NCBI GenBank assembly: GCA_964393205.1
Contig: CAYMSV010000002.1
Coordinates: 160,843-224,842, forward strand
Source: an uncultured Pseudomonadales bacterium
Lineage (GTDB): Bacteria; Patescibacteriota; Microgenomatia; UBA1400; PJMF01
Length of the DNA stretch: 64,000 nucleotides
Reading direction: 5' to 3'
Part shown: one piece after another, positions 12,255-45,209 of the stretch
How positions within the stretch are numbered: position 1 is the first letter of the stretch
Layout of the letters: each line of letters opens with the position of its first letter
Notes under the pieces: model-generated
Told to the model about the DNA's origin: nothing
Database searches by the model: none
The model's input: the letters and a program-made list of their open reading frames with translations, nothing else
Program-made: the position numbers and the translations under genes

Positions 12255-12255
12255 A

Positions 12256-26368: not shown

Positions 26369-27481
26369 TTAATTGAGGCTATAACTAACACCCTTGGTTA
26401 CCCCATGTTTCTTAACCACTCCCTTAGCAATTAAGTCTTTGAGATCTCGCAGAATAGTATCAACCGAAACATTAGGTAAGACTTTTTGGGCATCGTCAGA
26501 AGTCATAGTACCCTGATTTTGTAATAGCTCTAATAGAATAATTTGTCGCTCAGATAGTGCTACTTGTTGTCCAAGCTCACGTTTAAGCTTTAAATCTTGT
26601 GAAAGCTTAGCTACTTTTAGTTTAACCTTATCAATTTCTAAGGCTAAACCATAGGTAAAATATTCCAACCAATAAGTTAGGTCTTGCTTAGCATTTTGTT
26701 GAACAGATAAAAGCGCCTGATAATAAGCATCAACATCGCTATCAAAATATTCTTCAATTGAAAAAAAACGCTTAAAATCGTATCCAGACTCATAAAGAGC
26801 AAGAGTGGCAAAAGCTCGAGCACTACGACCATTTCCCTCTACATAAGGATGAATATAAACTAATTGATAATGGAGAATAGCTGCTCGTAAAATTGGGTGT
26901 AACTTTTGACTCTTTTCTCCTTTTAACCAAGCAAAAAGATCATCTAATAAAAAAGGAACTTCAGCAGCCACCGGTGGACGAAAAACTACCTGTCCATCTC
27001 TTGCACCTCTGACAATAACTTGTTTGTCACGTAAAGTGGCAATCTTTTCTTCTTCTAACAAATTATTCATGGTTAAACGATGCAATAAATTTAAAGTTGT
27101 TAGATTAAGTAAAGAGTCATCTTGGCTTTGAGTTTTTTTCAACAAGGGCTGTTGATCAATCCAAGCTAATACATTGCGATAATTAATAACCTCTTGAATG
27201 TCCCTTTCTCTAGCAATAATGCCAGTTTGGTCAAGAACTGATTGCACATTGTCAATTTTTTCTAAAGATAAAACCTGTCCGGCCTGAGCAGCGCTCAAGT
27301 CATTGCCCTCAATTCTGGTACCGTAATGAACACTGCGAGCTAAAGCTTCATCACGAAACTTAGCTTCCCAAGCAGGAACAAGTGGTGAGTTGTCAATTAC
27401 CGCCTTGGCTGATTCAATTGCAGAAATATAACTAAGTAAATTATTACTGATTTGAAATTGAGGTTCGTACATTAAAGTCAT
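26369..27481 (-). CDS. Fic-family protein (putative AMPylator), class II with N-terminal inhibitory motif and C-terminal wHTH
   Basis: Fic motif 'HPYVEGNGRSARA'. 'TRIEGN' fits the (S/T)xxxE(G/N) inhibitory helix. Confidence 0.85.
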   Translation of the reverse strand: MTLMYEPQFQISNNLLSYISAIESAKAVIDNSPLVPAWEAKFRDEALARSVHYGTRIEGNDLSAAQAGQVLSLEKIDNVQSVLDQTGIIARERDIQEVINYRNVLAWIDQQPLLKKTQSQDDSLLNLTTLNLLHRLTMNNLLEEEKIATLRDKQVIVRGARDGQVVFRPPVAAEVPFLLDDLFAWLKGEKSQKLHPILRAAILHYQLVYIHPYVEGNGRSARAFATLALYESGYDFKRFFSIEEYFDSDVDAYYQALLSVQQNAKQDLTYWLEYFTYGLALEIDKVKLKVAKLSQDLKLKRELGQQVALSERQIILLELLQNQGTMTSDDAQKVLPNVSVDTILRDLKDLIAKGVVKKHGVTKGVSYSLN

Positions 27482-27595
27482 ATTTTGGCATAGTTTGATC
27501 GCTAAAACAAGCGTTATTTTTGCAAATTATGCAAATTTATTTTAAAAACATAGTAAAAAACACAGAAAGATAAAACATAGTAAAATAAGAGCGCA

Positions 27596-28474
27596 ATGCA
27601 GAATCAAGAACAAAAGTCAAAATCTCAAAAAATAATTGAGCAAGCTTTTAAAAAGCTTAAAATTGCTAAAGAAGATTCTCATAAAGGCCAAAACGGCAAA
27701 CTACTAATTATTGGTGGTTCAGAATTATTTCATGCTGCCAGTAAATGGAGTCTTGATATTGCTAGCAAAATAGTTGATATGGTTTTTTATAGCTCTGTTC
27801 CTAGCAATAATATTCTGATTAGGCGCTGGCAAAAAAATGAGCTAGATCAAAAACTTAATCAAGAAGCAAAAGCGAATTTTTGGCAAGGAATTGTGGTTGA
27901 TCGTAAAGAAATTGAGCCTTATTTAAAAGAAGCTGACTGTATTTTATTAGGACCAGGGATGGAAAGAAGTTCTTATACTGCTCGACTGAGTGACCGATTA
28001 TTGAGCAAATATCCACAAAAAAAATGGGTAATTGACGCAGGAGCTTTACAAATGATTAACCCCAATCTTCTCAACAGTAATTGTATTATTACCCCTCACC
28101 ATCAAGAAATGGAAGTTTTACTTAAAAAAAATAATAGTTTCAACCCTAAAAACTATCAAGCTGAAGCAATTTGTTTACTGAAAGGCCCAGTCGATCAAAT
28201 TTTTCCAGGAATAAATCATCCACAACAAAAAACAATCAAAATTGAGGGTGGTAATGCAGGAATGACTAAAGGAGGCACAGGAGATGTTTTAGCTGGCCTA
28301 CTAGCTGCTCTTTATTGCAAAAATGACGCCTTAACTAGCACCATTGTTGCTAGCCATATTAATAAAAAAACTGGAGACTCTCTTTATAAAAAAGTTGGTC
28401 CTTATTTTAATGCCAGTGATTTGGTAGACGCAATTCCTCAAGTACTTTGGAATACTTTCCAAGCAAAAACTTGA
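27596..28474 (+). CDS. ADP/ATP-dependent NAD(P)H-hydrate dehydratase (YjeF C-terminal domain)
   Basis: 'NAGMTKGGTGDVLAGLLAAL' and 'LLIIGGSELFHAA'. Confidence 0.75.
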   Translation: MQNQEQKSKSQKIIEQAFKKLKIAKEDSHKGQNGKLLIIGGSELFHAASKWSLDIASKIVDMVFYSSVPSNNILIRRWQKNELDQKLNQEAKANFWQGIVVDRKEIEPYLKEADCILLGPGMERSSYTARLSDRLLSKYPQKKWVIDAGALQMINPNLLNSNCIITPHHQEMEVLLKKNNSFNPKNYQAEAICLLKGPVDQIFPGINHPQQKTIKIEGGNAGMTKGGTGDVLAGLLAALYCKNDALTSTIVASHINKKTGDSLYKKVGPYFNASDLVDAIPQVLWNTFQAKT

Positions 28475-28561
28475 AAATTCTCAAAAATTAGGTAAAATCA
28501 CCAGGTTCAGTGAAAAAATATTGGCAAACTTACCTATATTTTTACCTTTGACAGAAATAAT

Positions 28562-28945
28562 ATGACGAAAAAAGAGCATAAACCTATATCTAGTGCTGAG
28601 AATTCAGGCAAAACAGAAGAAACTCGTTTGGGAGATTTTTTAAGTGATTTAAAACTTTTCGACAATAGATATAAAAACCTATCGCTTTCTGAGTTTGAAA
28701 AAGTAGCTAATAGTGCTGATACTAAAAAAGTAGATGAGGATTTAGCAATTATTACCGATCTATTAATTGGTCTAACAGAATCAATTAACATTTGTAACAA
28801 AACTAGTCCAAAAACTGAATTTTATAATTATCATGCTTCAAGAATAAAACATTTGAGTAAAATTTTAGAAAATTTCGCTTGGTTTGAAAAATTAAGAAAA
28901 AAGCAGGACTCCCTCTTTTTTTATGATAACTTGCAATTGGATTAA
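28562..28945 (+). CDS. hypothetical protein
   Basis: 127-aa ORF with no known motif. The antisense ORF 28534..28800 is the less likely of the two. Confidence 0.3.
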   Translation: MTKKEHKPISSAENSGKTEETRLGDFLSDLKLFDNRYKNLSLSEFEKVANSADTKKVDEDLAIITDLLIGLTESINICNKTSPKTEFYNYHASRIKHLSKILENFAWFEKLRKKQDSLFFYDNLQLD

Positions 28946-28955
28946 TTGAATAAAA

Positions 28956-30077
28956 TTAGACTAATTCAATAGTTGCTGAATTTTTAAATGTTTTTTTAAG
29001 TTCCCTGGCTAAATTTCTATCGGCCGTGGTCAATATAGTTTGATAATTTTCTAATAAGCTCAAAACCATTGCCTTGCTGTCTTGATCTAATTCAGACATA
29101 ATGTCGTCCAAAAGTAAAATAGGTTGATAGTCTATTCGACTATGTAAAAATTGTAATTCAGCAATCTTAAGCCATAAAACTCCTAAACGCTGTTGACCTC
29201 GTGATCCATAAGCTAGCAAACTCAAATCTTCAATTCCTTTTTCTGGCAAAGAAAACTTAACTAAAAAATCATCCTTATGAGGACCAATAAGAGTGTGTCC
29301 AGCAGCTATTTCTCTATTTAAATATTTTTTTAAACGATCATCGCTAATTATTGAAGGCAAGTATTTAATATTTAGCTCAAAAGGAAAAATTACTTCTCTA
29401 ATAAAATCAATAAACTTAATTCTCTCTTGCTGTAAAAACTGACCATGCTTTGCTAAATTTAAATTCCAAAAAGACAAAATATTCTTTTTTTCTTCTCCTT
29501 CACGCACTTTTTGTAGTAACAGATTGCGACGTTTCAAAGTTCGTTCATACTGTTGCAGAGAGCGTTGATATTGCCAATCCAACATTGATAAGGTTTGGTC
29601 AAGAAATAAGCGGCGGCGGCGCGGGCTACCCTCCACCAAACGTAAATCTTCAGGACGAAAAACTACTACTGATAAATTTTTGACAAAATCAGCACGCCGC
29701 CGCCTAATATCATTAACAGTAAACAAACGATATTGACTCTTTTTACCACCCACCATGCCCCTGGTAAGCATTATTTCTAATTTTAGTTCTTCTGAAACCT
29801 GAGACTCTTGATTAGGTTTTTCATTTTTCCCCTCTTGAGGAGCAAAGCTCTCCATTTCAAAAAGAGCCTGCACTCTGCCCAATTCTGCTCCCAAACGAAT
29901 CATTTCCTCAATGCGATTAGCTCGAAAACTATCACTGCTAGCCAAAAGATTTATTGCCTCTACAACAGTCGTTTTGCCACTGCCATTGTCCCCAAGAATA
30001 ATTGTGGTTTTTTTAAAATCCCAATTTTTATTAGCAAAATTTCGAAAATTTTGCAAAGCTAATTTGCGCAACAACAT
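28956..30077 (-). CDS. recF: DNA replication/repair protein RecF
   Basis: 'LALQNFRNF', Walker A 'GDNGSGKTT', Walker B 'LLLDDIMSELD'. Confidence 0.85.
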   Translation of the reverse strand: MLLRKLALQNFRNFANKNWDFKKTTIILGDNGSGKTTVVEAINLLASSDSFRANRIEEMIRLGAELGRVQALFEMESFAPQEGKNEKPNQESQVSEELKLEIMLTRGMVGGKKSQYRLFTVNDIRRRRADFVKNLSVVVFRPEDLRLVEGSPRRRRLFLDQTLSMLDWQYQRSLQQYERTLKRRNLLLQKVREGEEKKNILSFWNLNLAKHGQFLQQERIKFIDFIREVIFPFELNIKYLPSIISDDRLKKYLNREIAAGHTLIGPHKDDFLVKFSLPEKGIEDLSLLAYGSRGQQRLGVLWLKIAELQFLHSRIDYQPILLLDDIMSELDQDSKAMVLSLLENYQTILTTADRNLARELKKTFKNSATIELV

Positions 30078-30098
30078 AAAGTTAAAAGCATTTTATAA

Positions 30099-30407
30099 CT
30101 ATTCACGAAAAGCACGTCTAAAACGATAAAATAAATAAATTAATAAAATCTGCCAAAAGAAAAAGAAAAAGAAAAAAGAACGATAAACTAATCTAAATAT
30201 CACTGACCCATCATAAAATAATGTTAACAACCACCAGGCAAACAAAATATAAAAAATACCTGCTAAAAGCGTGGGTAAAAACATTAGTGGAATAAAAACT
30301 TGATCGCGAACTAAATTTTGCATACTTTGATAAGGATGCAAAAATAAACCCAAAGTAATTTGACCTAATGAATAAATTATTGATTTAACAATTCCTATTT
30401 TATCCAT
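30099..30407 (-). CDS. small membrane protein (3 TM) with Phe7 run
   Basis: Overlaps the upstream ORF by 8 nt. A (GAAAAA)n tract encodes FFFFFFF. Confidence 0.35.
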   Translation of the reverse strand: MDKIGIVKSIIYSLGQITLGLFLHPYQSMQNLVRDQVFIPLMFLPTLLAGIFYILFAWWLLTLFYDGSVIFRLVYRSFFFFFFFWQILLIYLFYRFRRAFRE

Positions 30408-30609
30408 TGTTTCCTTGGTAGAGTAATAATTCCCAAAACAAAGATGTAATAAAAGCTAAAACTAATAAAATCTGCCAAGCGTGAGTGGCGATAAAATTAG
30501 CCACAACACTTAAACGGTCTGGAACAAATTTATCTTTTTCCAAAGAACTGATTAGTTTAGCTTCGTTTTTTAGTTTGATTAAAAACTCTTGACTGTCATT
30601 TTTTTTCAT
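30400..30609 (-). CDS. small single-pass membrane protein immediately downstream of the ECF sigma (anti-sigma candidate)
   Basis: 69 aa. Cytoplasmic N-terminus plus one TM helix. Its position in the sigma operon supports the call. Confidence 0.3.
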   Translation of the reverse strand: MKKNDSQEFLIKLKNEAKLISSLEKDKFVPDRLSVVANFIATHAWQILLVLAFITSLFWELLLYQGNNG

Positions 30610-30637
30610 GGATTTTTTAATTCAATCAATCATTTAA

Positions 30638-31201
30638 TTAGTCAACTGCCTGATTAATGTTTGCCCATAGTAAGCGAAATTCTTTTCTAGCTCTAAACAA
30701 TTCTGACTCAATCGCCTTTTCAGTCTTCCCTAATTCTTTAGCTAAATCTTTTATGCGCTTTTTATCCACATATTTTTGCATCAGCAGTTCTCTTGACCGC
30801 TTAGCCATTTTTTTCAAAACCAATTTGACCATAACGGCAGTTTCATGAGCATCTTTAAATTCATGTTCTAAAAAAACTTCAGAAAGAGGAATAGTTTTAA
30901 TAAATTTTTTTGCATAACGTTTACGGTAAAAATCGTTAATTTCGTGACGCATAATGCTCTGCATATATGTCAATAAAGAACTGTTTCCCTTAAAAAGATT
31001 GATTGCTCTTAGACAATTAACAAAAGTTTCTTGGACAATTTCTTCGGCCACTGAAGCATTAGGTAGTTTTTGTAAAGCCAGAGTTAATAGTTTTTTATAA
31101 TAATGCTTAAACCAATACTCAATTGCCAATTCATCACCCCTTCTTATGGCTTCAATTAAAACAAGCTCGTCTTTAAATCCAACAAAACGTTTCATGATCA
31201 A
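30638..31201 (-). CDS. ECF-type RNA polymerase sigma-70 family factor
   Basis: Region 2 'EEIVQETFVNCLRAINLF'. Region 4 HTH 'IKDLAKELGKTEKAIESELFRARKEF'. Confidence 0.75.
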   Translation of the reverse strand: MIMKRFVGFKDELVLIEAIRRGDELAIEYWFKHYYKKLLTLALQKLPNASVAEEIVQETFVNCLRAINLFKGNSSLLTYMQSIMRHEINDFYRKRYAKKFIKTIPLSEVFLEHEFKDAHETAVMVKLVLKKMAKRSRELLMQKYVDKKRIKDLAKELGKTEKAIESELFRARKEFRLLWANINQAVD

Positions 31202-31242
31202 ACTACCCTATCATATCAGAAAATTTTATTTTATAATTAGCT

Positions 31243-31659
31243 TTGATGAAAAAAATCTTGATATTAACCACACTGATTTTATCAATTTTACTTTCTCAAT
31301 TTTTTATTTTTAAGTTTTCAGCTATTGAATTAAGGGCCAGAGCCAGTACTGGGGATGTTGAAATAGATCTCTCAGAATACATGGTTCTCAGTGACGGACA
31401 AAAAGTTAGTGATGTTTTTAGCACACCAGCAGATATGGTAAATCTCCTGATAAGAGTTGTTTTTGTTCTCGTCGGTTTAATTTTATTTGCGATGATTGTT
31501 TTTTCTGGTCTAGCTATGATTTCAGGAAGTGAATCAGAAAGTAAAGAAAAAGCTAAAACGACTATGACTTCAGCCTTAATCGGGTTTCTGGTTATTTTTG
31601 CTGCTTATTGGATTATGCAAATTATTAGAACCTTTACTGGAGCAGATATTGGCTTTTAA
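31243..31659 (+). CDS. VirB2/TrbC-like small double-TM protein, paralog 1 (most divergent)
   Basis: Signal/anchor, then TM1 'LLIRVVFVLVGLILFAMIVF', a loop 'SGSESESKEKAKTT' and TM2. Confidence 0.45.
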   Translation: MMKKILILTTLILSILLSQFFIFKFSAIELRARASTGDVEIDLSEYMVLSDGQKVSDVFSTPADMVNLLIRVVFVLVGLILFAMIVFSGLAMISGSESESKEKAKTTMTSALIGFLVIFAAYWIMQIIRTFTGADIGF

Positions 31660-31688
31660 AAAAGAGCCAGGTATAATGAAAAATTGAA

Positions 31689-32126
31689 ATGAAAAAAATA
31701 ATTTTAAGCCTACTTTCCTTATTTGCCTTATCAACCCTCTTTTTAAACAATTATATTTTTGCTCAAACTCCAGTCGTACAACCAAACTCTGTCTTCGGCA
31801 ATATTGAGGCACCTCCTGGAGTAGCTGAGTTAAATCAACAATCAACCAGCGGCATTGGTCTCATTCTCTTTTTTTCCAACCTTATTAAACTGATCTCAGT
31901 TGTAGCCGGGTTATGGACCATGTTTAATTTTATCTTAGCTGGCTTTACCTATATCACTAGTGCTGACAACTCAGGAGCTATAGAAAAAATTGGCACCAAA
32001 CTCACTCTGAGCGTAGTTGGACTAGCCATTATTGTTGCTTCTTACACTATTGCGGCAATTATCGGCTTAATTATTTTTGGCGATGCTAGTTTTATCATTA
32101 ATCCGCAAATACCAAGTCCGATATAG
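31689..32126 (+). CDS. VirB2/TrbC-like pilin candidate, paralog 2
   Basis: Sec signal peptide 'LFLNNYIFA|QTP'. Two TM helices separated by the loop 'TSADNSGAIEKIGTK'. Confidence 0.5.
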   Translation: MKKIILSLLSLFALSTLFLNNYIFAQTPVVQPNSVFGNIEAPPGVAELNQQSTSGIGLILFFSNLIKLISVVAGLWTMFNFILAGFTYITSADNSGAIEKIGTKLTLSVVGLAIIVASYTIAAIIGLIIFGDASFIINPQIPSPI

Positions 32127-32149
32127 TATATAAATAAAATAATAAAATT

Positions 32150-32539
32150 ATGTCAAAAATTAATAATTTGTTAGCTCAAAGTGTCGATATTGGTTCAATA
32201 AAACCAGTGAATGATGCTCGACAGCCAAGCAATTTAAGCAATACCACCGTTTTATCAACCTTTGAATTGTGGATCAGCGACATTATTGGAGTTATTACCA
32301 TTTTAGGTACATTGTTTTTCATTGTTTATGCTTTCATCGCAGCCTTTAATTGGATTACTGCTGCTGGTGACAAAGGAAAAATTGAAAAAGCTAAAGATCG
32401 CCTAGTTTGGAGCACCCTGGGTCTTATTTTAATTGTTGCTACCTACGCAATTATTGGCCTAATTGGCGGTATTATTGGTTTGGAATTATTAGAACCAGCA
32501 AAAATGATACAAGAAATTATTCCTGGAGCCAGTCCATAA
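32150..32539 (+). CDS. VirB2/TrbC-like pilin candidate, paralog 3
   Basis: 'FNWITAAGDKGKIEKAKDRL' loop between two TM helices. Confidence 0.5.
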   Translation: MSKINNLLAQSVDIGSIKPVNDARQPSNLSNTTVLSTFELWISDIIGVITILGTLFFIVYAFIAAFNWITAAGDKGKIEKAKDRLVWSTLGLILIVATYAIIGLIGGIIGLELLEPAKMIQEIIPGASP

Positions 32540-32541
32540 CT

Positions 32542-32967
32542 ATGAAAAAAAGATTAAGCAACTTATATCAAAAATTAGGTTTTTTTTATTTATATTTATT
32601 AAACTTACTTATTCATCCTAAAATAGCCAGGGCACAAATTAATAACCCAGTTATTGGTGATCTTGGACAAAATGACCCCTCAGTGCCCAGTGGCGGTAAA
32701 TTTATTCAATATACTGTTTATTTGTGGAGAGCTTCCATAACTATTGGCTCTTTAGCAGTTATCGCCTATTTTTTACTAGGTGCATTTAGTTGGATTACCT
32801 CTGGAGGAGATAAAACTAAGGTAGAAACAGCGCGTAATCAAATGACTCACGCTATTATTGGTTTATTGCTATTAGTTAGCTCTTTTGTGTTACTTAGCTT
32901 TATGAGTAAATTACTTTTCGGGGGAGAATTTGATTTATTAAAACTTACCATACCCGGTGTAAATTAA
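32542..32967 (+). CDS. VirB2/TrbC-like pilin candidate, paralog 4
   Basis: Start at internal M 32542 (the ORF track's 32407 overlaps paralog 3). Signal peptide '...IARA|QIN'. 'FSWITSGGDKTKVETARNQM'. Confidence 0.5.
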   Translation: MKKRLSNLYQKLGFFYLYLLNLLIHPKIARAQINNPVIGDLGQNDPSVPSGGKFIQYTVYLWRASITIGSLAVIAYFLLGAFSWITSGGDKTKVETARNQMTHAIIGLLLLVSSFVLLSFMSKLLFGGEFDLLKLTIPGVN

Positions 32968-32991
32968 AATTAACAAATTAAAAAAATAAAT

Positions 32992-33333
32992 ATGAATAGA
33001 CAAATCGCACAAGTTACTTTAGACATAGCAGATGAAGCTATTAAGCAAGGCCTCTATGGCGCTGAGCAATCTCAAACACCTGATGGTGGATTTGGTGTTT
33101 GGCTTAGCAATATTTTAAGAGTAGCTATGATTCTCGGAGTTGTTGCTTGTTTGGGTTTGATTGTTTGGGGAGCTATCGAATGGATTACATCCTCTGGCGA
33201 TAAACAAAAAACTGAAGAGGCACGTAATAAAATTACTACAGCCATTATTGGTTTAATAGTTTTAGCAGCCACCATGGCTATTTTTAGTCTGGTAGCTAGT
33301 TTCTTGGGCATTACTGTTATTAAATTCGTCTAG
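32992..33333 (+). CDS. VirB2/TrbC-like pilin candidate, paralog 5
   Basis: 'IEWITSSGDKQKTEEARNKI' between two TM helices. Confidence 0.5.
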   Translation: MNRQIAQVTLDIADEAIKQGLYGAEQSQTPDGGFGVWLSNILRVAMILGVVACLGLIVWGAIEWITSSGDKQKTEEARNKITTAIIGLIVLAATMAIFSLVASFLGITVIKFV

Positions 33334-33403
33334 ATTTTTTTGCTAAAGACTAATAAACTTGATATAATAAAAATTAGATAGAAAAATTTAAAAGGAGACT
33401 TTT

Positions 33404-33808
33404 ATGAAATTAACTAAAAAAATTGCTCTGGCTAGCGGCAGCGCTTTCAGCGGGATTCTTCTTCAAGCCAAAATGGTGATGGCAGCTTTCGATGACATTG
33501 AGGTTAATCCAGGCACGGGCTATGCTACAGATTTTGGCAAAATGTTTAGTTCTATTTTAAACGTAGTAATGCTAATTGCTGCTGTTTTAGTTTTTGCTTA
33601 TCTTATCTTTGGAGGCATCCAGTGGATTACCTCTGGAGGAGATAAAGGAAAAGCTGAAGAAGCACGCAATAAAATTACAGCCGCCATTATTGGATTAATT
33701 ATTGTAGCGGCTTCCTATGCAGTAATTAACTTAATTGTGAACTTCTTGGGCTTTGGTAGCTTTAATGAAGTTTTTCAAAATGTAGGTACCATTAATAAAC
33801 CTAATTAA
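33404..33808 (+). CDS. VirB2/TrbC-like pilin candidate, paralog 6
   Basis: Strong SD AAGGAG 8 nt upstream. 'IQWITSGGDKGKAEEARNKI'. Confidence 0.55.
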   Translation: MKLTKKIALASGSAFSGILLQAKMVMAAFDDIEVNPGTGYATDFGKMFSSILNVVMLIAAVLVFAYLIFGGIQWITSGGDKGKAEEARNKITAAIIGLIIVAASYAVINLIVNFLGFGSFNEVFQNVGTINKPN

Positions 33809-33840
33809 TTTTAGATACTAAAAACTCTCTTTTCATTTGC

Positions 33841-34266
33841 TTGGAAAGAGAGTTTTTTATTGCTATAATCAGAATTATTATGATTCAAATCTTTTCGTTT
33901 TTTTCCATTGTTAAACCTGTTCAAGCACAGACTAAAAGCTGGGATCAAATAAATGACAATTGTGTTATAGAAGGAGTAGCAAGTATTCAGGGTATTGGTT
34001 GCTTGCTAGCCAACATTCTTTCTGTGGTTTTAACTTTAATTGGTATAGCGGGATTTGTGATGATTATTTATGCGGCTTTTAATTTATTATTATCAGCTGG
34101 AAAAAGCCAAGAGGTAGAAAAATCTAAAAACACTATTACTTTTGCTATTATTGGTTTAATTTTAGCTCTATCTGCTTTCATAATTATTAATCTCATTTCT
34201 AGCTTTACAGGCATTGATTTTATTAAGTCTTTTGTTATTCCAGGATCACAAAAAGACTGGTTCTAA
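33841..34266 (+). CDS. VirB2/TrbC-like pilin candidate, paralog 7
   Basis: Signal peptide '...VQA|QTK'. Two TM helices with the loop 'SAGKSQEVEKSKNT'. Confidence 0.45.
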   Translation: MEREFFIAIIRIIMIQIFSFFSIVKPVQAQTKSWDQINDNCVIEGVASIQGIGCLLANILSVVLTLIGIAGFVMIIYAAFNLLLSAGKSQEVEKSKNTITFAIIGLILALSAFIIINLISSFTGIDFIKSFVIPGSQKDWF

Positions 34267-34298
34267 AATCATTTTCAAAATAATTAAGAAATCAGCAA

Positions 34299-35015
34299 TC
34301 ATTGTCCAAAACGTCGTTGCCGACTATCAAATTCAGATAGCGCTTTCGCAAACTCTTTCTCATTGAAGTCTGGCATTAGTGTCGAACAAAAATATAATTC
34401 ACTATATACCCCCTGCCAAGGCAAATAACCGGACAAACGCTGTTCCCCACCAGGTCTAATAATTAAATCTGGATCAGGCAAATCAAGCTCAAACTTGGTA
34501 TCAAGATATTTCTCTAAAAGCTCTGGAACAATCTCTTTTTCTGTTAAGTTTTTTTCTTGAACAATCAAACGTTTAACAGCCCTTATTATTTCATCTCGAC
34601 CACCATAGTTAAGGGCAAAGGTAACAACAAGCTTCTTATTGTTAAGAGTCTCTTTCTTCCAATGCTCAACTCCCTCTCTAATATCTTGGGGAAAGCGACC
34701 CAAATCACCAATGGTGTGCACTCTCACCCCTTTTTTATGTAAACGCTCAGCAGCCGTACTAAAGGTTTCACGAAATAAACCCATTATTCCTTCTAATTCT
34801 TTGCTGTCACGCTGCCAATTTTCAGTACTAAAAGCCCAAAGAGTTAAAAACTCAATACCAACACTAATCGCATAATCGGCTAGTTTTTCTATTGTTTCCT
34901 CGGCAGTTTTGCGGTGACCTTTAATAATTGATAAACCTTGTTTTCTTGCCCATCGTCGATTGCCATCCATAATGATAGCAACGTGTTGAGGAATTTTGTC
35001 TGTTTTCATACTCAT
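34299..35015 (-). CDS. uppS: undecaprenyl diphosphate synthase (cis-isoprenyl transferase)
   Basis: 'HVAIIMDGNRRWARKQGL' and 'ALNYGGRDEI'. Confidence 0.9.
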   Translation of the reverse strand: MSMKTDKIPQHVAIIMDGNRRWARKQGLSIIKGHRKTAEETIEKLADYAISVGIEFLTLWAFSTENWQRDSKELEGIMGLFRETFSTAAERLHKKGVRVHTIGDLGRFPQDIREGVEHWKKETLNNKKLVVTFALNYGGRDEIIRAVKRLIVQEKNLTEKEIVPELLEKYLDTKFELDLPDPDLIIRPGGEQRLSGYLPWQGVYSELYFCSTLMPDFNEKEFAKALSEFDSRQRRFGQ

Positions 35016-35028
35016 ATTTCTATATTAA

Positions 35029-35640
35029 TTATATTGTTACATTTTCTAAAAAGCGATTAATAGTTTTTTCTAATTGCTCATTGTCTAAAAAGAGTTTAAA
35101 CCATGGAGTTAATTCTCCATCTTCTAATCTTTTTTGATCAATTAACTTATACCAGTCAATCCAGAGTAAATCAGCAACTTCTTGAGGATTTTTGTCTAGC
35201 TCTAAACTTTTTGCTTCCTGATCGTTTAAAAATAGGGCAAAAACGTGGTCAATTTCTTTTTCACTATAGCGCTGATTACAAAGCACTTGATAATTTAAAA
35301 TAAAAATCTCTTTCACGCTTTGGCAAAGATTCTTAGATAGGCTTATTCCTAATTCTTCTTTCAATCGCCTCAAGACACATTCCCTATGACTTTCCCCCAT
35401 CGCTACATTGCCACAAACTGTATTAGCCCACTGACTAGCTCCTACAATTTTTTTATCACTACGTTTTTGTATTAATAATTGAAAACGGCCAACTTTACTT
35501 TTTCTAAACAAAAATAAAGAAATTGCTTGATGGAGCATGGCTTCTCCCGAATGAGCCTCAAATTTATCAGCACTAGCGATAATCTCATCTTGATCATTAA
35601 CTAAATTTACCCGGCTATAATCCACTAAGGTTTTATTCAT
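35029..35640 (-). CDS. idi: isopentenyl-diphosphate delta-isomerase, type 1 (Nudix fold)
   Basis: 'LHQAISLFLF...LLIQKRSDKKIVGASQWANTVCGNVAMGESHRECVLRRLKEELGI' matches IDI-1 including the catalytic Cys in 'TVCGN'. The ORF track start 35718 would overlap the valS ATG head-on, so the internal M at 35640 (MNKTL) is preferred. Confidence 0.7.
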   Translation of the reverse strand: MNKTLVDYSRVNLVNDQDEIIASADKFEAHSGEAMLHQAISLFLFRKSKVGRFQLLIQKRSDKKIVGASQWANTVCGNVAMGESHRECVLRRLKEELGISLSKNLCQSVKEIFILNYQVLCNQRYSEKEIDHVFALFLNDQEAKSLELDKNPQEVADLLWIDWYKLIDQKRLEDGELTPWFKLFLDNEQLEKTINRFLENVTI

Positions 35641-35716
35641 CTCCGTTATTTTAACAGACAAAGAATTGAAGTTATAAACTAGAGTCAAGCCTGCTTCGGT
35701 GCTATAATTAACGGTC

Positions 35717-38044
35717 ATGGATAAACATTATCAACCACAAGATTACGAAGAAAAAATCTATCAACTTTGGGAAAAAGCTGATGCTTTCAATCCTGATAGT
35801 GAGATAAATCAACGGTTAAAAAATGAAGATTTATCAAGTTTTTCCATTATTATGCCTCCTCCAAATGCCAACGATCCACTACATTTGGGTCACGGCTGTG
35901 TTGTAACTCTAGAAGACATCATGGTTCGCTTCGCTCGAATGAGGGGTCATGACACTCTTTGGCTCCCTGGCACCGATCACGCTGGTATTGAAACACAATT
36001 TGTTTTTGAAAAGAAACTCAAAAAAGAAAAAAAGAGTCGTTTTAATTTTGATCGCCAAACTCTTTATCAAATGATCTGGGATTATGTTGAAAAAAATAGT
36101 CAAATAGCTGTTCAGCAAATTAAACAATTAGGCGCCAGCGCTGACTGGAGTCGCTTTAAGTTTACTCTAGATCCAGATATTGTTGAAGACGTCATCAAAA
36201 CTTTTGAGCAAATGGCAAAAGATGACTTAATCTATCGAGCCAACCGATTAGTAAATTACTGTCCTAAATGTGGCACTGGTTTTAGTAATTTAGAAGTTAA
36301 TCATGTTGAAGAAAAAAACCCCCTTTATTATTTAAAATATGGGCCAATTAATATTGCCACAACTAGACCAGAAACCATCTTTGCCGATGTGGCAATTGCT
36401 GTCCACCCTAAAGATAAACGTTATCGTGCTTATCATGGAAAAACTATCGAGTTTCAAGGATTATTAGGCTTGGTCAAACTTAAAGTAATTGCTGATGATT
36501 TTGTTGATCCGGAATTTGGCACCGGTGCAGTTAAAATTACCCCCTTCCATGATTTTAATGATTTTGCTTTTTGGCAAAAACATCAAGATCAATTACAAGA
36601 AGCTATTAATAATAATGAGCTTGGCTACATTGATTTAAAAGAACAATTAATAAAGGAAAAAAATCTAAGCAATGAAGAAGAAAAATTACCTGCTATAGCA
36701 GTTAATTTTGATGGTCGACTCACTAAATTTACCGGCAAATATGCTGGACTCAAAACGCATATAGCTCGAGAAAATATTGTTAAAGATTTAGAACAAAATC
36801 AATTATTAGAAAAAATTGACGAACAATATCAACATAGTTTAGCCAAATGCTATCGCTGTAATAAACCCATAGAACCCCTTCCTCTCCCCCAATTTTATGT
36901 TCGAGTTAAATCATTAACAGAAGCTGTTTTACAGAAAATTAAGAAAAAAGAACTGACAATATATGGCGCTGGTTATGACAAAATTCTTAAACATTGGTTA
37001 GAAAACTTAGAAGATTGGAATATTAGTCGACAGATTGTTTGGGGTATTCGTATGCCAGTCTGGTATGAAGTTGACAATAATCCAAATTTACGAATTACTT
37101 TTTTAGATAAAGATGGACAAAGAATTACTGATCTCATCAAAAACTTACTTAAAAAATATTCTTTTGAGGAGATAGAAAAAGGTTTACAAAACCTCGCTGC
37201 CCCCATTGACGCTCAATATTTACTTGGCACCACTAAACCAGATGATACTAAGCAATATTTACAAGAAACCGACACTTTTGACACTTGGTTTTCTTCAAGC
37301 CAGTGGCCAGTAGTTGCTCTAAAAAATAATAAACCTGGAGACTTTGAGCGTTTTTATCCGACTAGCATTATGGAAACCGCCTATGACATTTTAATGTTTT
37401 GGGTAATGCGCATGCTAATGATGGGTTTGTATAGCACTCAACAATTACCATTTAAAAAAATTTATTTGCACGGCCTTATTAGAGATGGCAAAGGCCAGAA
37501 AATGAGTAAGAGTAAGGGCAATGTTGTTAATCCACTAGAAATTGGCGAAAAATACGGTATAGATGCGCTTAGAATGGCTATTGTTATTCGCTCTAGTGCT
37601 GGATTAGACAAAAGTATTAGCGATGCTGATTTTAAAGCAATGCGCAATCTTAATAATAAGCTTTGGAATGCGACTCGTTTTATTTTGTTGCAAAGAGAAT
37701 CGCCCACTTATTCAGACAATAATAAGCAAGGACAGCTAGACAAAAAATTTGATAAAAAACTCAAACAGCTTGAGTCTGTAATCACTCGTAATCTAGAACA
37801 GCAACAACTGGGTTTAGCCGCTGAAACTTTGCATAATGAATTTTGGCATTGGTTTTGTGACGAGTGTATAGAAGAGTCAAAAAATGGATTGATAAGTCAA
37901 GAAAAAATCTTAAACGGTCTAATAATTTTTTTGAAGATGTTTCACCCATTTATCCCTTTTGTAACTGAAGCCATTTGGCAAATTTTATATCAAGAAAAAT
38001 TAGTAAAAGAAAAAATACTAATGAGTAGTCCTTGGCCAATTTAA
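35717..38044 (+). CDS. valS: valyl-tRNA synthetase (compact, lacks long C-terminal coiled coil)
   Basis: HIGH region 'PPPNANDPLHLGHG', 'DWNISRQIVWGIRMPVW' and KMSKS 'KMSKSKGNVV'. Confidence 0.8.
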   Translation: MDKHYQPQDYEEKIYQLWEKADAFNPDSEINQRLKNEDLSSFSIIMPPPNANDPLHLGHGCVVTLEDIMVRFARMRGHDTLWLPGTDHAGIETQFVFEKKLKKEKKSRFNFDRQTLYQMIWDYVEKNSQIAVQQIKQLGASADWSRFKFTLDPDIVEDVIKTFEQMAKDDLIYRANRLVNYCPKCGTGFSNLEVNHVEEKNPLYYLKYGPINIATTRPETIFADVAIAVHPKDKRYRAYHGKTIEFQGLLGLVKLKVIADDFVDPEFGTGAVKITPFHDFNDFAFWQKHQDQLQEAINNNELGYIDLKEQLIKEKNLSNEEEKLPAIAVNFDGRLTKFTGKYAGLKTHIARENIVKDLEQNQLLEKIDEQYQHSLAKCYRCNKPIEPLPLPQFYVRVKSLTEAVLQKIKKKELTIYGAGYDKILKHWLENLEDWNISRQIVWGIRMPVWYEVDNNPNLRITFLDKDGQRITDLIKNLLKKYSFEEIEKGLQNLAAPIDAQYLLGTTKPDDTKQYLQETDTFDTWFSSSQWPVVALKNNKPGDFERFYPTSIMETAYDILMFWVMRMLMMGLYSTQQLPFKKIYLHGLIRDGKGQKMSKSKGNVVNPLEIGEKYGIDALRMAIVIRSSAGLDKSISDADFKAMRNLNNKLWNATRFILLQRESPTYSDNNKQGQLDKKFDKKLKQLESVITRNLEQQQLGLAAETLHNEFWHWFCDECIEESKNGLISQEKILNGLIIFLKMFHPFIPFVTEAIWQILYQEKLVKEKILMSSPWPI

Positions 38045-38463
38045 TGTTAAAAAAAATCAGCAACTATTTATTGCTTCTTATCTTAATTATAAGACTTCTT
38101 TACAAACTCTGTATTTTCAGCATTCAATATTTATTTCTTAAACTTAAATTAAAAGGAGAAATAACTCCTGTTTTATTATTTCTTTTATTATTAATTTGGC
38201 TAATTAATTGGCAGCTATGGCAAAAAAACAAGATCCCTCAGATTGAATTAAAAGAGGCACCAAGTCAAAACCCTGGAGAAATTTTGCTTACTCTTGATCA
38301 GGTAGAAATTGAAACGCTAAAAAATTTTTATTTAAAACTGGAAACAAAACAAAAACACAGTCGAGACATATTTTTTAACCTTGCTAAGTTATTAGAACTT
38401 GAAGATTTAAAAATAGCTCAAGAAAAATTTCAACAATCTTGGGAACTAGACCCCAATTATTAA
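38032..38463 (+). CDS. hypothetical small membrane protein
   Basis: 143-aa ORF overlapping the valS end. Two hydrophobic helices. Weak support. Confidence 0.25.
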   Translation: MANLMLKKISNYLLLLILIIRLLYKLCIFSIQYLFLKLKLKGEITPVLLFLLLLIWLINWQLWQKNKIPQIELKEAPSQNPGEILLTLDQVEIETLKNFYLKLETKQKHSRDIFFNLAKLLELEDLKIAQEKFQQSWELDPNY

Positions 38464-38511
38464 ACAGCTTGTCTTAAAAATTAAAATATTGCTGTAATAA
38501 ACCCTATTGTT

Positions 38512-39234
38512 TTATTTAGAATCAGTTGGTTTTTCTTCAACTGTAGCCTGATCTTCACTGACTGTTTTTTCAGACTGAGACTCTTCACCACCCTCAGTTT
38601 TTTCAGCTTTTTCATCTTCGCCAACTAGTTCTGGCTCAACTAACTCATCAGGTGTCTCTACAACCTCCTCTTCTTCTTGAGCTTGAACAGAAATCAACAC
38701 TCTTTCGCTTGGATTTTCGTCTTCGGTCAAAACCAATTCAACCTTATCTTTGTCATAATCTAAATCAGCTAAAGTAAAAGCATCACCAATAGCTTTTAAG
38801 TTGCTAACATCAAAAACAAACTTTTCTGGAAGATTGGCTGGTAAAGCCTCAACCTCAACTTCGTCTTGAACAGTGATTAAAACTGCTTCTGCGACATCAA
38901 ACTCCCCTATCACTTCAACTGGCACATTAGCAGTAATTTTTTCCTTTAAGTTTACTCCTCTAAAAACCACATGCTCAAAATTAGCACCTAAATAATCCAT
39001 ATCGACCTGATCAATTAAGGCTGGTACGGCTTGAGATTCTCCTCCAATGTTTAAATAAATTAAGCCAGTTTCTCCTGCTTCACTATAAAGTTTAGCAAAA
39101 TCTATGGGATCAAGCTCTAGAGCTATTGAGTCTTTTTTTGGGATATAAACATTGGCTGGTAATCTACCCTCTCGGCGCAGTTGTTTAGCTTTTTTATTTG
39201 AACGCTTGTCTACTTTAAAAGTAATTTTTGTCAT
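38512..39234 (-). CDS. rplY: 50S ribosomal protein L25 (general stress protein Ctc form) with acidic C-terminal extension
   Basis: 'MTKITFKVDKRSNKKAKQLRREGRLPANVY' is the L25/Ctc N-terminal fold. The tail is E/D-rich. Confidence 0.8.
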   Translation of the reverse strand: MTKITFKVDKRSNKKAKQLRREGRLPANVYIPKKDSIALELDPIDFAKLYSEAGETGLIYLNIGGESQAVPALIDQVDMDYLGANFEHVVFRGVNLKEKITANVPVEVIGEFDVAEAVLITVQDEVEVEALPANLPEKFVFDVSNLKAIGDAFTLADLDYDKDKVELVLTEDENPSERVLISVQAQEEEEVVETPDELVEPELVGEDEKAEKTEGGEESQSEKTVSEDQATVEEKPTDSK

Positions 39235-39446
39235 AAGTAACTTTTCTATATTTTAAAAATATATATTTCTAGAAGCAAAATAGGTTCTCATTCTACCACA
39301 AAGCTCAAAAAATCTCTAAAAGAGCTTGAACCAAAATAAGGCCGAAAGAAAGTGATCATTTAAAAAAAAATAATCTAAAAAAAAGTAGCTTAAAAAGCTT
39401 AATAAATCAATATATTTTCTTAAAAAAGGCCTTTTTACACGTGAAA

Positions 39447-42400
39447 CTAAAAAGCAACCGCAAATAAAAAGTTGTCTTGATTGTCGTTCTTAAACTCAAT
39501 TACTTTATCTTGATAATTGGCTTGGGGAGCAATAAGACTGGGAGAAAAATCTTCAGCAAATAAAACTTTATAATGAGTTTGTTTGTTAAACAAACCAGCC
39601 TGTTTTTGATCTAAAAACACATAAGAAAATGGAGTCTTCAATTGATGAGGAACAAGATAAATTATCTCCAGAGTTACATTAGAAAGTATTGGAACAGTAA
39701 ATCTATGAGCCAAAACTCGCTTATTTTTTTCTTCAAACCATTTGTAGACGTTTCGATTAACAGCCTTTCCATTAAAAGTTATTCTTTCTAAACTGGCATT
39801 TTTTGGCAAATAAAATTTTAGATAAGCTTGATAGTTTCCTTCTGGCCAAAAGTTTTGGCGACCAAGATTTTCTAAACGGATTACGCGCTTATGACGAATA
39901 AACTTTTCGCTAATTCCTATACTATGATTTATTTCTTGAGTAATTAAACGATTAACTTTATTTAAGCCCACGTTGTTTTCTAACTGATAAATTCCATCCG
40001 TAAAGCATTGATCACCAACACCAGCAAATTCAGTTGGACAAGGAGTTTCTAGAATCTCTCCAGACCACAAATTGTTTTTTAAGATCTCTGATAATTCTTG
40101 ATCATCACTGTACAAAAAAGCTTCTCTTTTATCTAAAGCTAAATTTAGTTTAGTTAAAATAAAAATAACTTCTTCTTTAGAAAGTTTTGATAAACGCTCA
40201 AAAAAACTATTCAAAACAGAATTAAAATCAACATTTTCTTGGCGCAATAGTTCTTCAAAAAAGTTATTTTGATTTAATTCAAATTCATTAATCATAAGAG
40301 GGGAGAGCACTTCTAGAAAATCATAAACCTCTTTGCTGTTTAAAGTTAAAATAAGATCAGGACGCATATTTAAACTTTGCTCTATAAACCAAGTAATATC
40401 TGAGCTAGCATCGGCAAAACTAGCCGGCCAATTAGCATCTCTCAATAGCAATCTGTTGGCTACCAACATACTTCTTAATTCTTCAGGAGCCTCTCTTTCA
40501 CCATAAATCCTTTTGTCTAGATCGCTTACATCATAAACCCGCCAATTTAATAAATGACTATTCTCAAAACTTAAATTAACCACAGAAACCAAAAACCCCC
40601 CACTTGATCTCAACTCATTGCTATCTTGAATTAAAACTACAAGATTACTTCTTGCAGGACTTAACAAAAACCTACTTAGAGATTCTAAAAACATTGTTGA
40701 ACGTTGCTGAGACGCCAACTCTTTTAGGGTTTTTGCTTTATATTGAGCTAAAATTTCTGCCTGTGCTTTTGGCAAAATTTCAGGATTCAATTGATCTAAA
40801 AGGCTGCTTAACTCCTGCTTAAACTGATAAAATTCTTGATTTTTTGTCAAATAATTTGCCCAATCAACGCTCACATCACCATCTGTTTTTAATACTGCTT
40901 GATAAAGCTTAAATGTTTCATCGTCTAGCTCCTGTGCTAAAACTGCTTGTTTTTTTAAATGCTCAAAAATTTGCCAATAATTATTAGGTGTTGAGAAAAT
41001 TTCCTCACCAATTAGTTCTCCATAATTATCTAATTGCCACTTTAAAAAATGGTAATCTCTTTTACCCTGAAAATTATTCTTATCAGTTAAATTAGCCTGA
41101 ATAACAGCCAGCAAGTCTTTTTCAAAAAGTTTTTGAGTAAAATAAAAATTAGCAAACAAAACTAAAACCAAGGTGCCTATTAGAGATAAAAAAATGCCAA
41201 AGTAAAAAGAGAGGCGGCGATATTTACTCTTTTTTACAATTTTTTTTGCACCTTTTAGATTTTGTTTAAAACGCTGCTGATGCCTATTTTTTTGTTCTTT
41301 ACGAAAAATGTCTTGGAGGGTTTTATCAATATTGTTTGATTCATCAATCTTATTTTTATCTTTTACCGTTAAATCATCAGTTTTTTGTAAATTTTGTTCT
41401 AAATTATTTTCAAGCTGATTGGTTCTGCTTACATTTTTATTAAGCTCAGAGGCTCTCTCAGCATCATTTTCCAGCTTTTCATCATCGTTTGTTGTAGTTA
41501 TTTTTGACAGTGACTCTTTGGCTATTTTTTGCGCCTCAATCACTTGCAGATTGTTTTTATCTAAAAGCATTTCTTTATTAAGAGAAAGAGGAAGTTGGCG
41601 GATTTTTTCATCTAAAACTTCAAGTACCTTTTTGTCAGAGTTATAAACCCTTATAAAATCTGCTAAAAAATAATTTTCTTCTCTCGGTTGTAAAAATAGC
41701 TCTAAAACATCAAATTTTTGCAAAAAATATCGACTACATAAGTCCTTGGCTTTTAACAAAAATTTTGTACTGTGAGTTTTTTGTCCTCTTAACAAGTGTT
41801 TTTCACTTGGCTTGCTTTGAAAAAATAAAGTTTTAAAACTTCTTAAAAAACCATCTTGAGTCTGCCAGTAGCAATTATTTTGACTGTCTAAAAGAAATTG
41901 TTTTTTAAAGGGGCTAAAAAACAAATTAAATTTTAAATTAAAATCAAAATCTAAATTTAAAATATCTTCTACTAAACAAAATTGAGCTAAGGGAAAAGCC
42001 TTGAGCGCTTGATTTAAAAAGCTATTTTGTTTAGACCAAAAATTTTTAAAATTGCTTAGCTCAAAATCCATGGGTGAAATTGGGGTAGAGTAGTTTAATA
42101 AAAAGAATATTGCTATCAACCGACCATCTTCTGCAAAACCTCGTTCAAAAGCTCGTAATACCTGCAAAAGAAAATCTGGGTTTTCTATATATGTTTTTTT
42201 AAAACCGCCTACGACCAAAAATTTATAAACCTCAGTGTTTTTAATTGCTTTATATTGTTTTAGGGCCTCACTTGGATCTGTAAAAGATTCTAATAACAAT
42301 AACCTTGCATCTAAAGCACAGTGCTTAAAAAAAAGTATTAAACCATCAATAAAGAGATTATTTTCTTCAGCTAATAAAAAAACTACAGGTCTATCATCAA

Positions 42401-43432: not shown

Positions 43433-44455
43433 TCAAGAGCGCTTCTTTTTTTTGGCTGCTCGTTTTTTTTGCTGACGACTTTTTTTAATTTTTTCTTGTT
43501 TTTTCACTTTAGTGGCCCTGGTATTTTTAGTTGGTAAAGACTCTGTACTTGCACCTCTTTTCATCAAAAGTTCAGCTAATTCTGTATTTTTTTTATTACT
43601 ATCTTTTGTTTTTAATATTTTCTTTAAAGGAGTCTCCTTAACTATTTTTTGCTTTTTATTTTCTTCTATCAAAATATTTTTACCTTGCTCTTCCGACAAA
43701 AGTTTAGCTCCAAAAAGACCTTTCTTTGCGACATGATTATTCCAAAAAACAGCAATTCCTCCTAAACCAGAAACAAAATATTGAGTAACAATACTAAAAA
43801 CTGTTCCCATAATCCAATATAAAGCTAAACCAGAGGGTAATCTTAAAGCAATTATACCAGTCATAATTGGCATTAAAAACATCATTTGTTGCTGCATGGT
43901 AGAAGCCATTTCAGCTATGTCTTCTTCTTTCTCATTAGCTTTCTTTAACAACTCGTCTTGGGTTTTATTCGGCACCACATCTCTGGTTTGAGTAGCAGGA
44001 GAGATCATTAAAGATAAAATAAATTGGCTAAGAGCTGCTAAAATTGGAAAAATATATAATCCATCTGGTTGACTAAGATCAGTCCATAAAAAATTAAAAT
44101 TTAATCCATTTGACTGATCAAATAAACCAATAATTGCTCGATACAAAATAATTAAAATCACTAATTGAATTAATTGAGGTAAACAACCAGCTAGAGGATT
44201 AATATTATAGCTTTTATAAAGTTGAGATTGAGCAAGAGCATATCCTTGTTTATCTCCCTTATATTTTTCTTTAAGTTTTTTTAATTCTGGCTGGAGTTTT
44301 TTAATTTTTTGACTCGACTTAATGCTTGGTAAGGTTAAGGGTAAAATTAATAAACGAATAATTATAGTAAAAACTATAAGAGCTAACCCAACACTACCTA
44401 AAGCACTATTAAAAAACAATAAAACTTCGCTAAAAAAAGTAATTAAAAATCCCAT
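43433..44455 (-). CDS. yidC: membrane protein insertase YidC (short monoderm type) with basic C-tail
   Basis: 'LALYWIMGTVFSIVTQYF' and a K/R-rich C-terminus. Confidence 0.85.
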   Translation of the reverse strand: MGFLITFFSEVLLFFNSALGSVGLALIVFTIIIRLLILPLTLPSIKSSQKIKKLQPELKKLKEKYKGDKQGYALAQSQLYKSYNINPLAGCLPQLIQLVILIILYRAIIGLFDQSNGLNFNFLWTDLSQPDGLYIFPILAALSQFILSLMISPATQTRDVVPNKTQDELLKKANEKEEDIAEMASTMQQQMMFLMPIMTGIIALRLPSGLALYWIMGTVFSIVTQYFVSGLGGIAVFWNNHVAKKGLFGAKLLSEEQGKNILIEENKKQKIVKETPLKKILKTKDSNKKNTELAELLMKRGASTESLPTKNTRATKVKKQEKIKKSRQQKKRAAKKKKRS

Positions 44456-44462
44456 AAATTTC

Positions 44463-44645
44463 TTAGTGGCGACAATTAAGCGCTCGCCAAATTCCTTTCG
44501 CTAACCCGATAATTGTACCATTCTTTTTTATTTCCAGAGTAGTATATTGACTACAGCTTGGCACCTGACCGCACACTGAAGAGTAACCAAAAACACTATA
44601 CATAATATTATGCCGAATCGTACTTAAAAACTTATATACTTTCAT
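44463..44645 (-). CDS. yidD: membrane protein insertion efficiency factor YidD
   Basis: 'CGQVPSCSQY' fits the YidD C-x-x-x-P-x-C-S-x-Y motif. 60 aa. Overlaps rnpA by 4 nt. Confidence 0.7.
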   Translation of the reverse strand: MKVYKFLSTIRHNIMYSVFGYSSVCGQVPSCSQYTTLEIKKNGTIIGLAKGIWRALNCRH

Positions 44646-44998: not shown

Positions 44999-45041
44999 TA
45001 AGTTTAATTTTACTCTAAAAAAAAGAAAAAGTGTTAAAAAT

Positions 45042-45188: not shown

Positions 45189-45209
45189 AAGCGATTATTA
45201 TAACATGAC

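Follow-up and report, generated by a model that had tools for sequence, protein, structure and literature searches.

We examined a 64,000-nucleotide stretch of contig CAYMSV010000002.1 (assembly GCA_964393205.1, from the Microgenomatia lineage of the Patescibacteriota), hereafter the window, which carries an array of seven consecutive plus-strand genes for small, pilin-like membrane proteins. The array spans 31243-34266, or 31246-34266 with ATG starts, and the seven open reading frames lie where an earlier reading of this DNA (the original prediction) had put them, encoding proteins of 113-145 aa (Table 1). It is bordered on one side by recF, with a small sigma factor operon in between, and on the other by uppS, followed by a NUDIX gene and valS. 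Over the 3.5 kb compared, this DNA has an identical counterpart on a contig of Joint Genome Institute metagenome 3300033177, where the public gene calls use the same ATG starts. The window is AT-rich (29-39% G+C) and holds the core genes recF, uppS, valS, yidC, rnpA, dnaN and dnaA together with those for L25 and an ATP-dependent DNA ligase, and is therefore chromosomal; the genome is Microgenomatia/Woesebacteria-like. A hydropathy survey of the window open reading frames found no further pilin-like genes elsewhere in it.

In all seven proteins a charged loop of 14-30 aa lies between two strongly hydrophobic segments, the two-helix architecture that had been predicted for them. Pairwise local identity among the copies averages 33%, with a maximum of 53% between copies 5 and 6, and copies 3 and 4 are separated by 2 nt. 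A Sec signal peptide had been expected in all seven copies; by our calls, which use a hydropathy heuristic only, this holds for copies 1, 2, 4, 6 and 7, which have an N-terminal hydrophobic segment and an AxA-like site, and fails for copies 3 and 5. No N-terminal hydrophobic segment was found at positions 3 and 5 in any of six genomes (the window and five relatives); because these positions are signal-less in all orthologs examined, we regard the absence as conserved and not as a product of misplaced start codons. The proposed loop consensus fared similarly: the motif WIT[SA]xGDKxKxExA[RK][ND] is exact in copies 3-6, and copies 1, 2 and 7 deviate, so that three copies depart from it and not only the two outer ones. 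Position 7 has a further feature, a pair of cysteines spaced by ~13 residues, which lies in the N-terminal part immediately ahead of the first helix in all six genomes and may form an extracytoplasmic disulfide unique to that paralog. The start of copy 7 is probably ATG 33880, used in public gene calls on identical DNA, rather than TTG 33841, which would give a protein of 141 aa. The type IV prepilin motif G-[FM]-T-L-I-E is absent from all seven copies, as had been noted, and none has a Pfam match of the type IV pilus pilin type.

Table 1. Features of the pilin-like array, the adjoining sigma operon and the type IV secretion genes; positions are those of the window.
Feature	Position	Strand	Details
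Copy 1	31246-31659	+	137 aa; signal peptide; PF18895 32.8 bits; fastest-evolving copy, dN/dS 0.14-0.36
Copy 2	31689-32126	+	145 aa; signal peptide; PF18895 12.2 bits; held-out profile E 2.4e-18
Copy 3	32150-32539	+	129 aa; without signal peptide; PF18895 29.7 bits; NF045849 37.2 bits
Copy 4	32542-32967	+	141 aa; signal peptide; PF18895 24.8 bits; held-out profile E 1.4e-20
Copy 5	32992-33333	+	113 aa; without signal peptide; PF18895 41.9 bits; closest paralog is copy 6
Copy 6	33404-33808	+	134 aa; signal peptide ending VMA/A; PF18895 35.9 bits
Copy 7	33880-34266	+	128 aa; signal peptide; PF18895 29.2 bits; Cys pair
Copy 6 promoter, sigma-70-type, near-consensus	33340-33368	+	TTGCTA-17-TATAAT, upstream TG
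Copy 6 intrinsic terminator	33820-33863	+	16-bp stem, 6-nt loop, U tract
Copy 7 promoter-like site	33841-33869	+	TTGGAA-17-TATAAT with TG, 10 nt before ATG 33880
Divergent intergenic region	31196-31245	.	50 bp with ATG starts
ECF-type (group 4) sigma-70 factor	30638-31195	-	185 aa from ATG 31195; TTG 31201 alternative
Putative anti-sigma factor, single-pass membrane protein	30400-30609	-	69 aa; directly downstream of sigma gene
102-aa protein, two hydrophobic segments	30099-30407	-	Last gene of sigma operon
VirB4-like type IV secretion ATPase, CD1110 family, monoderm type	48331-50526	-	Adjoins dnaA
Candidate type IV secretion component, weak TrsD/TraD-family match	50526-51650	-	374 aa; NF041427 27.4 bits vs cutoff 200
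PrgI (VirB3-like) membrane protein	51705-52658	-	PF12666 27.6 bits vs gathering threshold 27; N-terminal transmembrane segments

The array belongs to the PF18895 family (T4SS_pilin, for type IV secretion system, T4SS). Copies 1, 3, 5, 6 and 7 pass its gathering threshold (26.6 bits, whole-protein score), copy 4 narrowly misses it and copy 2 scores weakly; in six copies the expectation value (E) is 1e-10 to 2e-5. Leave-one-position-out profiles, each made from six positions in six genomes, matched every held-out window copy at E 1e-12 to 1e-27, and since every held-out position was recognised, we conclude that all seven are true paralogs. In NCBIfam the best match is NF045849, a family of pilin-like conjugal transfer proteins, for every copy but copy 2, where it ranks second of two weak matches; its scores of 10.0-37.2 bits all lie under the equivalog cutoff of 40. 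AlphaFold2 gave the helical hairpin expected at the outset both for copy 6 (H44-76/H81-114, predicted local distance difference test score, pLDDT, about 90) and for the weakest copy, copy 2 (H56-90/H95-130, pLDDT 81-88). Homologs of copy 6 number 512, of which the 120 listed are all annotated PF18895; those with names are Candidatus Woesebacteria or Pacebacteria. The family is very large: searching 1.84 billion cluster representatives with a profile gave 73,039 relatives at E <= 1e-3. The original prediction had called these proteins VirB2/TrbC-like, and the PF18895 matches, the hairpin and nearby VirB4 and PrgI genes agree with this in substance; no copy matches PF04956 (TrbC/VirB2) at E <= 1. 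We describe them as VirB2-like in topology and context, and not as proven homologs of PF04956.

Small proteins with five signal peptides and two amphipathic or hydrophobic helices might also be secreted membrane-active peptides of bacteriocin, holin or toxin-like type, encoded beside their regulator, as the original prediction allowed. Pfam offers this idea marginal noise only, such as Phage_holin_3_6 at E 0.27; there was no PHROG match, bacteriocin and holin families stayed at noise level in Pfam and NCBIfam, and no ABC exporter or other transporter, immunity or lysis genes lie nearby, the flanks being recF and uppS. Synteny within the core genome and a constraint like that of housekeeping genes, both found in many species as described below, also speak against the idea, which is effectively refuted.

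The locus is conserved as a block. In all relatives fetched, recF, the 102-aa gene, the 69-aa gene and the sigma gene precede the seven pilin-like genes, which are followed by uppS, the NUDIX gene and valS, and this synteny reaches down to 56% identity of copy 6. Across five relatives the best match of each window copy was always the copy at the same position, with same-position identities of 45-93% and identities of 15-48% to other positions. Because the best match is always positional, we conclude that the duplications are ancient and the order fixed. Among 80 species-representative loci, arrays with both ends present contain 5-11 genes, and seven is the commonest size (26 loci).

Transcription signals apparently divide the array into three units: copies 1-5, copy 6 alone, and copy 7. 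The first unit would be driven from the promoter region common to the sigma gene, with a TATAAT at 31232-31237, 8 nt 5' of ATG 31246, and in most related loci a TATAAT lies 7-12 nt ahead of the first pilin ATG. The divergent arrangement agrees with the original prediction, and its length does not: the gap is 50 bp with the ATG starts of the public gene calls, and the predicted 41 bp if TTG starts are used. At both copy 1 and copy 7 a TATAAT 8-10 nt before the ATG suggests leaderless transcripts. Copy 6 has a fuller set of signals, with a leader and an AAGGAG ribosome-binding site 3' of its promoter. A TG-extended -10 element (mostly TGATATAAT) was found by pattern upstream of copy 6 in 19 of 28 related loci, and a -35-like TTGAC or TTGCT and an AAGGAG-like site, judged by eye, in most loci checked. 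The copy 6 terminator has a minimum free energy of -21.9 kcal/mol (z -5.8) and was also found as an inverted repeat; a stable stem-loop lies 3' of the copy 6 ortholog in 17/17 related loci, usually followed by a U-rich run, in sequences that are unrelated to one another (G+C-rich in 14 loci, with a 10-18-bp stem in the others).

The paralogs evolve under constraint. Ratios of nonsynonymous to synonymous divergence (dN/dS) for 16 genes, estimated against L014, a relative without mosaicism, are 0.02-0.14 for the copies and 0.03-0.20 for flanking genes, and the value of 0.02 for copy 6 is the lowest of all 16. Conservation is higher in the hairpin core and loop than in the N- and C-terminal tails, and reaches 92% in the copy 6 loop. 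From its promoter, ribosome-binding site, terminator and constraint, copy 6 is a candidate major subunit.

One close relative gave a different picture. Compared with L012 (GCA_964464985.1), the array is 77-86% identical and the flanks 90-99% (82% and 91.5% overall), and synonymous divergence (dS) is 0.8-1.2 in the pilin genes and 0.1-0.5 in the flanks. This comparison is mosaic across 27400-39900, with the sigma gene and valS at 94-99% identity, and the array and 28404-29150 at only 70-86%; the mosaic may reflect recombination or a co-assembly chimera. No contrast between array and flanks was found between the window and L014 (82.3 vs 82.4%), or in the pairs L005-L019, L039-L041 and L069-L071. 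We therefore rejected a divergence island, whether from diversifying selection or allele replacement, as a general feature, as these four close pairs lack it.

These data bear on the proposal, made in the original prediction and also put forward by Quinonero-Coronel et al. (2025, PMC12102498), that the paralogs are interchangeable pilins, deployed singly or a few together, which diversify fast for evasion or host-strain matching. The low identity among paralogs, the variation of array size across the wider clade, and the L012 pair would all fit, as would the location of the least conserved parts in the tails, which are probably surface-exposed; a precedent, cited in PMC12102498, exists in the VirB2 paralogs of Bartonella and Anaplasma. 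Each position is nevertheless a distinct orthogroup in an order kept to about 50% identity, dN/dS does not rise above that of housekeeping neighbours, and the divergence island is limited to one pair. The array also has no long repeats for cassette exchange, the longest shared DNA being 47 nt at 70% identity, and low dN/dS without recombination cassettes argues against antigenic-type variation. The conserved position-specific features (the signal-less positions 3 and 5, the position 7 cysteines, and the copy 6 promoter and terminator) point instead to fixed, distinct roles. We consider variable subunits quite improbable. Of the two options joined in the original prediction, mixed or variable subunits, the mixed one is viable and favoured, since paralogs that are old, fixed and constrained favour co-assembly over antigenic variation.

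As predicted, the gene divergent from the array encodes a sigma factor of the extracytoplasmic function (ECF) type. It has regions 2 and 4 only (Sigma70_r2 45 bits, Sigma70_r4_2 34 bits, Sigma70_ECF 25.7 bits) and passes TIGR02937, sigma70-ECF, with 69.2 bits against a cutoff of 42.9, reaching no specific ECF subgroup in NCBIfam. A divergent sigma ortholog adjoins the array in 50 of the 62 species-level loci that have enough upstream sequence, drawn from the same 80. The 69-aa membrane protein is called a putative anti-sigma factor from its position only, and matched no anti-sigma or other family in Pfam or NCBIfam; a transmembrane open reading frame of 58-101 aa lies downstream of the sigma gene in 36/51 related loci. 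The 102-aa protein likewise has no Pfam or NCBIfam match, and an open reading frame occupies its position in all syntenic relatives. We found no paper tying a sigma factor to these arrays, and PMC12102498 is silent on sigma factors. The sigma gene and the putative anti-sigma gene beside it are conserved neighbours of the array, and could plausibly regulate the copy 1-5 unit.

Genes of a type IV secretion system lie beside dnaA, 14-20 kb from the array: virB4, a PrgI/VirB3-like gene and a weakly TrsD-like gene. The VirB4-like ATPase scores 388.9 bits for NF045971 (cutoff 325) and 90.7 bits for P-loop_TraG, also matches AAA_10, and has NCBIfam matches to the CD1110 and Mbov_0397 families. No relaxase was recognised in the window with Pfam or NCBIfam. 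Two further minus-strand genes in or near this cluster encode large proteins, one of 1115 aa without family match (53065-56412) and one of 580 aa with ~7-9 hydrophobic segments (58781-60523); the latter is a candidate for a highly diverged VirB6, a gene reported as "scarce" in Microgenomatia. The cumulative GC skew has its minimum at ~44-46 kb, beside dnaN and dnaA (44000-48300), which places both the pilin array and the VirB4 cluster within ~15 kb of the probable replication origin. This proximity agrees with reports on Patescibacterial T4SS genes.

We suggest, with a probability of about 0.62, that the array encodes seven VirB2-like PF18895 subunits, one major (copy 6) and six minor, which serve the monoderm-type T4SS encoded beside dnaA. 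The small proteins would insert in the cytoplasmic membrane as two-helix hairpins with the Lys/Glu-rich loop on the cytoplasmic side, copies 3 and 5 attaining the same topology without a cleaved signal peptide, and would most likely be used by the MPF-FATA-like system 14 kb away. Copy 6 would be the abundant subunit, joined in a single heteromeric pilus or conduit by the other six as specialised minor subunits. If the assembly resembles solved conjugative pili, its lumen would be lined by the loop, and the N- and C-terminal tails, which vary more, would lie on the outside. The sigma/anti-sigma pair could tune copies 1-5 on an envelope or host-contact signal, and, as proposed for Saccharibacteria, the structure would serve exchange between an epibiont and its host cell, and not conjugation.

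Several observations weigh against this reading. A family-profile search of all PDB sequences gave no significant match to solved conjugative pilins, and hhalign against an Agrobacterium-type VirB2 profile returned a probability of 4.2% (E 0.0098), in a topologically correct register and against a shallow profile whose members are 57-85% identical to its first sequence. The assignment of major and minor subunits is based on regulatory signals and constraint. A search for an ECF-type promoter motif ahead of the array, copy 6 and copy 7 found only housekeeping-type TATAAT or TG-extended -10 elements; the visible promoters look housekeeping-type, and none of them is therefore assigned to the sigma factor. 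Neither a VirB6 homolog nor a coupling protein was recognised in the window with Pfam or NCBIfam, and the array is not adjacent to virB4.

The last point, with ~13 housekeeping genes between the two, also suits a different model, in which the hairpins are membrane-resident parts of a T4SS channel or other envelope complex and are never extruded, so that "pilin" would be no more than the name of the family. No T4SS pilus has yet been observed in any Patescibacterium (2025 review, PMC12857230), the fold match of the hairpin to pilins is non-diagnostic, and relatives with up to 17 fused hairpins behind one signal peptide would be polytopic membrane proteins. Such fusions are equally compatible with units that stay in the membrane. 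A resident role fits less well with the family-level links to conjugation pilin-like proteins, with the pili that the VirB2-like PrgF of Gram-positive plasmids is reported to form (2025 preprint, bioRxiv 10.64898/2025.12.18.695078), and with the surface exposure suggested by the fusion of one family member to adhesin-like PKD domains. The strong monocistronic signals of copy 6 are also more in keeping with a structural subunit made in bulk than with a channel component needed in stoichiometric amounts. We regard a purely membrane-resident complex as rather unlikely, and lean towards the co-assembled pilus or conduit.

The fused relatives are numerous. Many family members elsewhere are single open reading frames with 2-17 in-frame units, each a transmembrane-loop-transmembrane hairpin, and one N-terminal signal peptide; examples are P0241 (552 aa), P0243 (820 aa), P0256 (1775 aa), P0338 (1147 aa) and P0385 (966 aa), and the genes at L094:8001-13328 and L095:8001-10463. 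By hand count, ~70 of the 150 best-scoring representatives are multi-unit, in a ranking that favours such proteins. We found no mention of these "polypilins" in the literature searched. In-frame fusion suggests that the units lie side by side in one assembly. The L094 gene (GCA_975902405.1, CDLKIH010000037.1) encodes the 17-unit polyprotein, on a contig that is probably archaeal because it also carries genes for ribosomal protein L39e and of Cas4/Csa1 type. This product has precomputed matches to both PF04956 (TrbC) and PF18895, and judged by these may bridge the two pilin families. In L095 the 8-unit polypilin gene is followed 3' (10751-14557) by genes for a 155-aa T4SS_pilin, a 383-aa T4SS_pilin-PKD fusion and a 718-aa PKD-repeat protein, which hints at pilin subunits carrying adhesin-like domains.

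A broader proposal is that the T4SS-associated filament or conduit of a large clade within Microgenomatia is an obligate heteropolymer of one major and six fixed, specialised minor subunits, with the covalently fused polyproteins of some relatives as its extreme form and the minor operon under a dedicated ECF sigma/anti-sigma switch responsive to the envelope or to host contact; we offer this tentatively, and on balance doubt it. We know of no counterpart to such a regulated multi-subunit architecture among known conjugative pili, which are homopolymers.

The array is a typical case of the Patescibacterial VirB2-like arrays already published. Using PF18895 and related profiles on 3,035 Patescibacteria genomes, Quinonero-Coronel et al. 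found VirB2-like pilins in 1,948 assemblies and 441 arrays, each with 2-11 pilin genes and chiefly from Microgenomatia and Saccharimonadia, with a mean within-array identity of 25% (maximum 54%) and T4SS genes near dnaA (PMC12102498). Our array has the same PF18895 family, a size and paralog identities that match these figures, a host of Microgenomatia type, one of the two array-richest classes, and the same monoderm VirB4 type beside dnaA, with no relaxase or coupling protein recognised. It differs in lying outside the T4SS cluster, 14 kb away between recF and uppS, and in its divergent ECF-type sigma gene; order-fixed orthogroups, purifying selection and a one-copy major-subunit signature are likewise not described in PMC12102498. 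The new details are therefore modest: conserved sigma linkage, fixed orthogroups, signal-less positions and the copy 6 major-subunit signature.

Canonical VirB2/TrbC (PF04956) and F-type TraA resemble the window proteins in size, hairpin prediction, charged loop, VirB4 association and the signal peptide predicted for most copies, two being without. Here, unlike there, PF04956 and solved-pilin matches are lacking, the profile comparison with VirB2 falls short of significance, the organism is monoderm, and seven paralogs take the place of one. A VirB2-like pilus protein, PrgF, is also reported from conjugative plasmids of Gram-positive bacteria (bioRxiv 10.64898/2025.12.18.695078), and the partner ATPase in the window is of the same monoderm T4SS class as those of PrgF (pCF10) and of the Mbov_0395 family of Mycoplasma integrative and conjugative elements. 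It is the latter family (NF045849) that six of the seven copies match best in NCBIfam, though below its cutoff. PrgF and Mbov_0395 are single-copy genes on mobile conjugative elements, whereas the seven paralogs here form a chromosomal, core-genome array with no recognised relaxase or coupling protein. With the major and minor subunits of type IV pili the array shares only a common logic, one highly expressed major gene with its own promoter and terminator, and low-identity minor paralogs in an operon; the protein family is unrelated, the assembly machine is another, and the prepilin peptidase motif is absent here.

A large part of uncultivated bacterial diversity belongs to the Patescibacteria. 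Southlakia epibionticum ML1, the only species tested, needs the T4SS and a predicted pilin series for life on its host cell, both being essential by transposon sequencing (Tn-seq) (Wang et al., 2023, PMC10633639). Our locus leaves the general picture of the Patescibacterial T4SS unchanged. It does provide, in copy 6, a candidate major subunit to seek in proteomes and tomograms, and the conserved sigma/anti-sigma neighbour could be a first regulatory entry point into this system.

Many species-representative metagenome-assembled genome records that carry this Patescibacteria-type locus (L014-L093) are titled "uncultured Pseudomonadales bacterium", and a complete genome with the locus, CP011212.1, is titled "candidate division TM6"; these record titles look like taxonomic mislabels. 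Elsewhere in the window, three adjacent genes at 14961-18043 encode proteins of 343, 344 and 300 aa with low-complexity N-termini followed by one hydrophobic anchor. They have no Pfam match, the first and third are paralogs (52% identical), and G+C there reaches 0.39, the window maximum.

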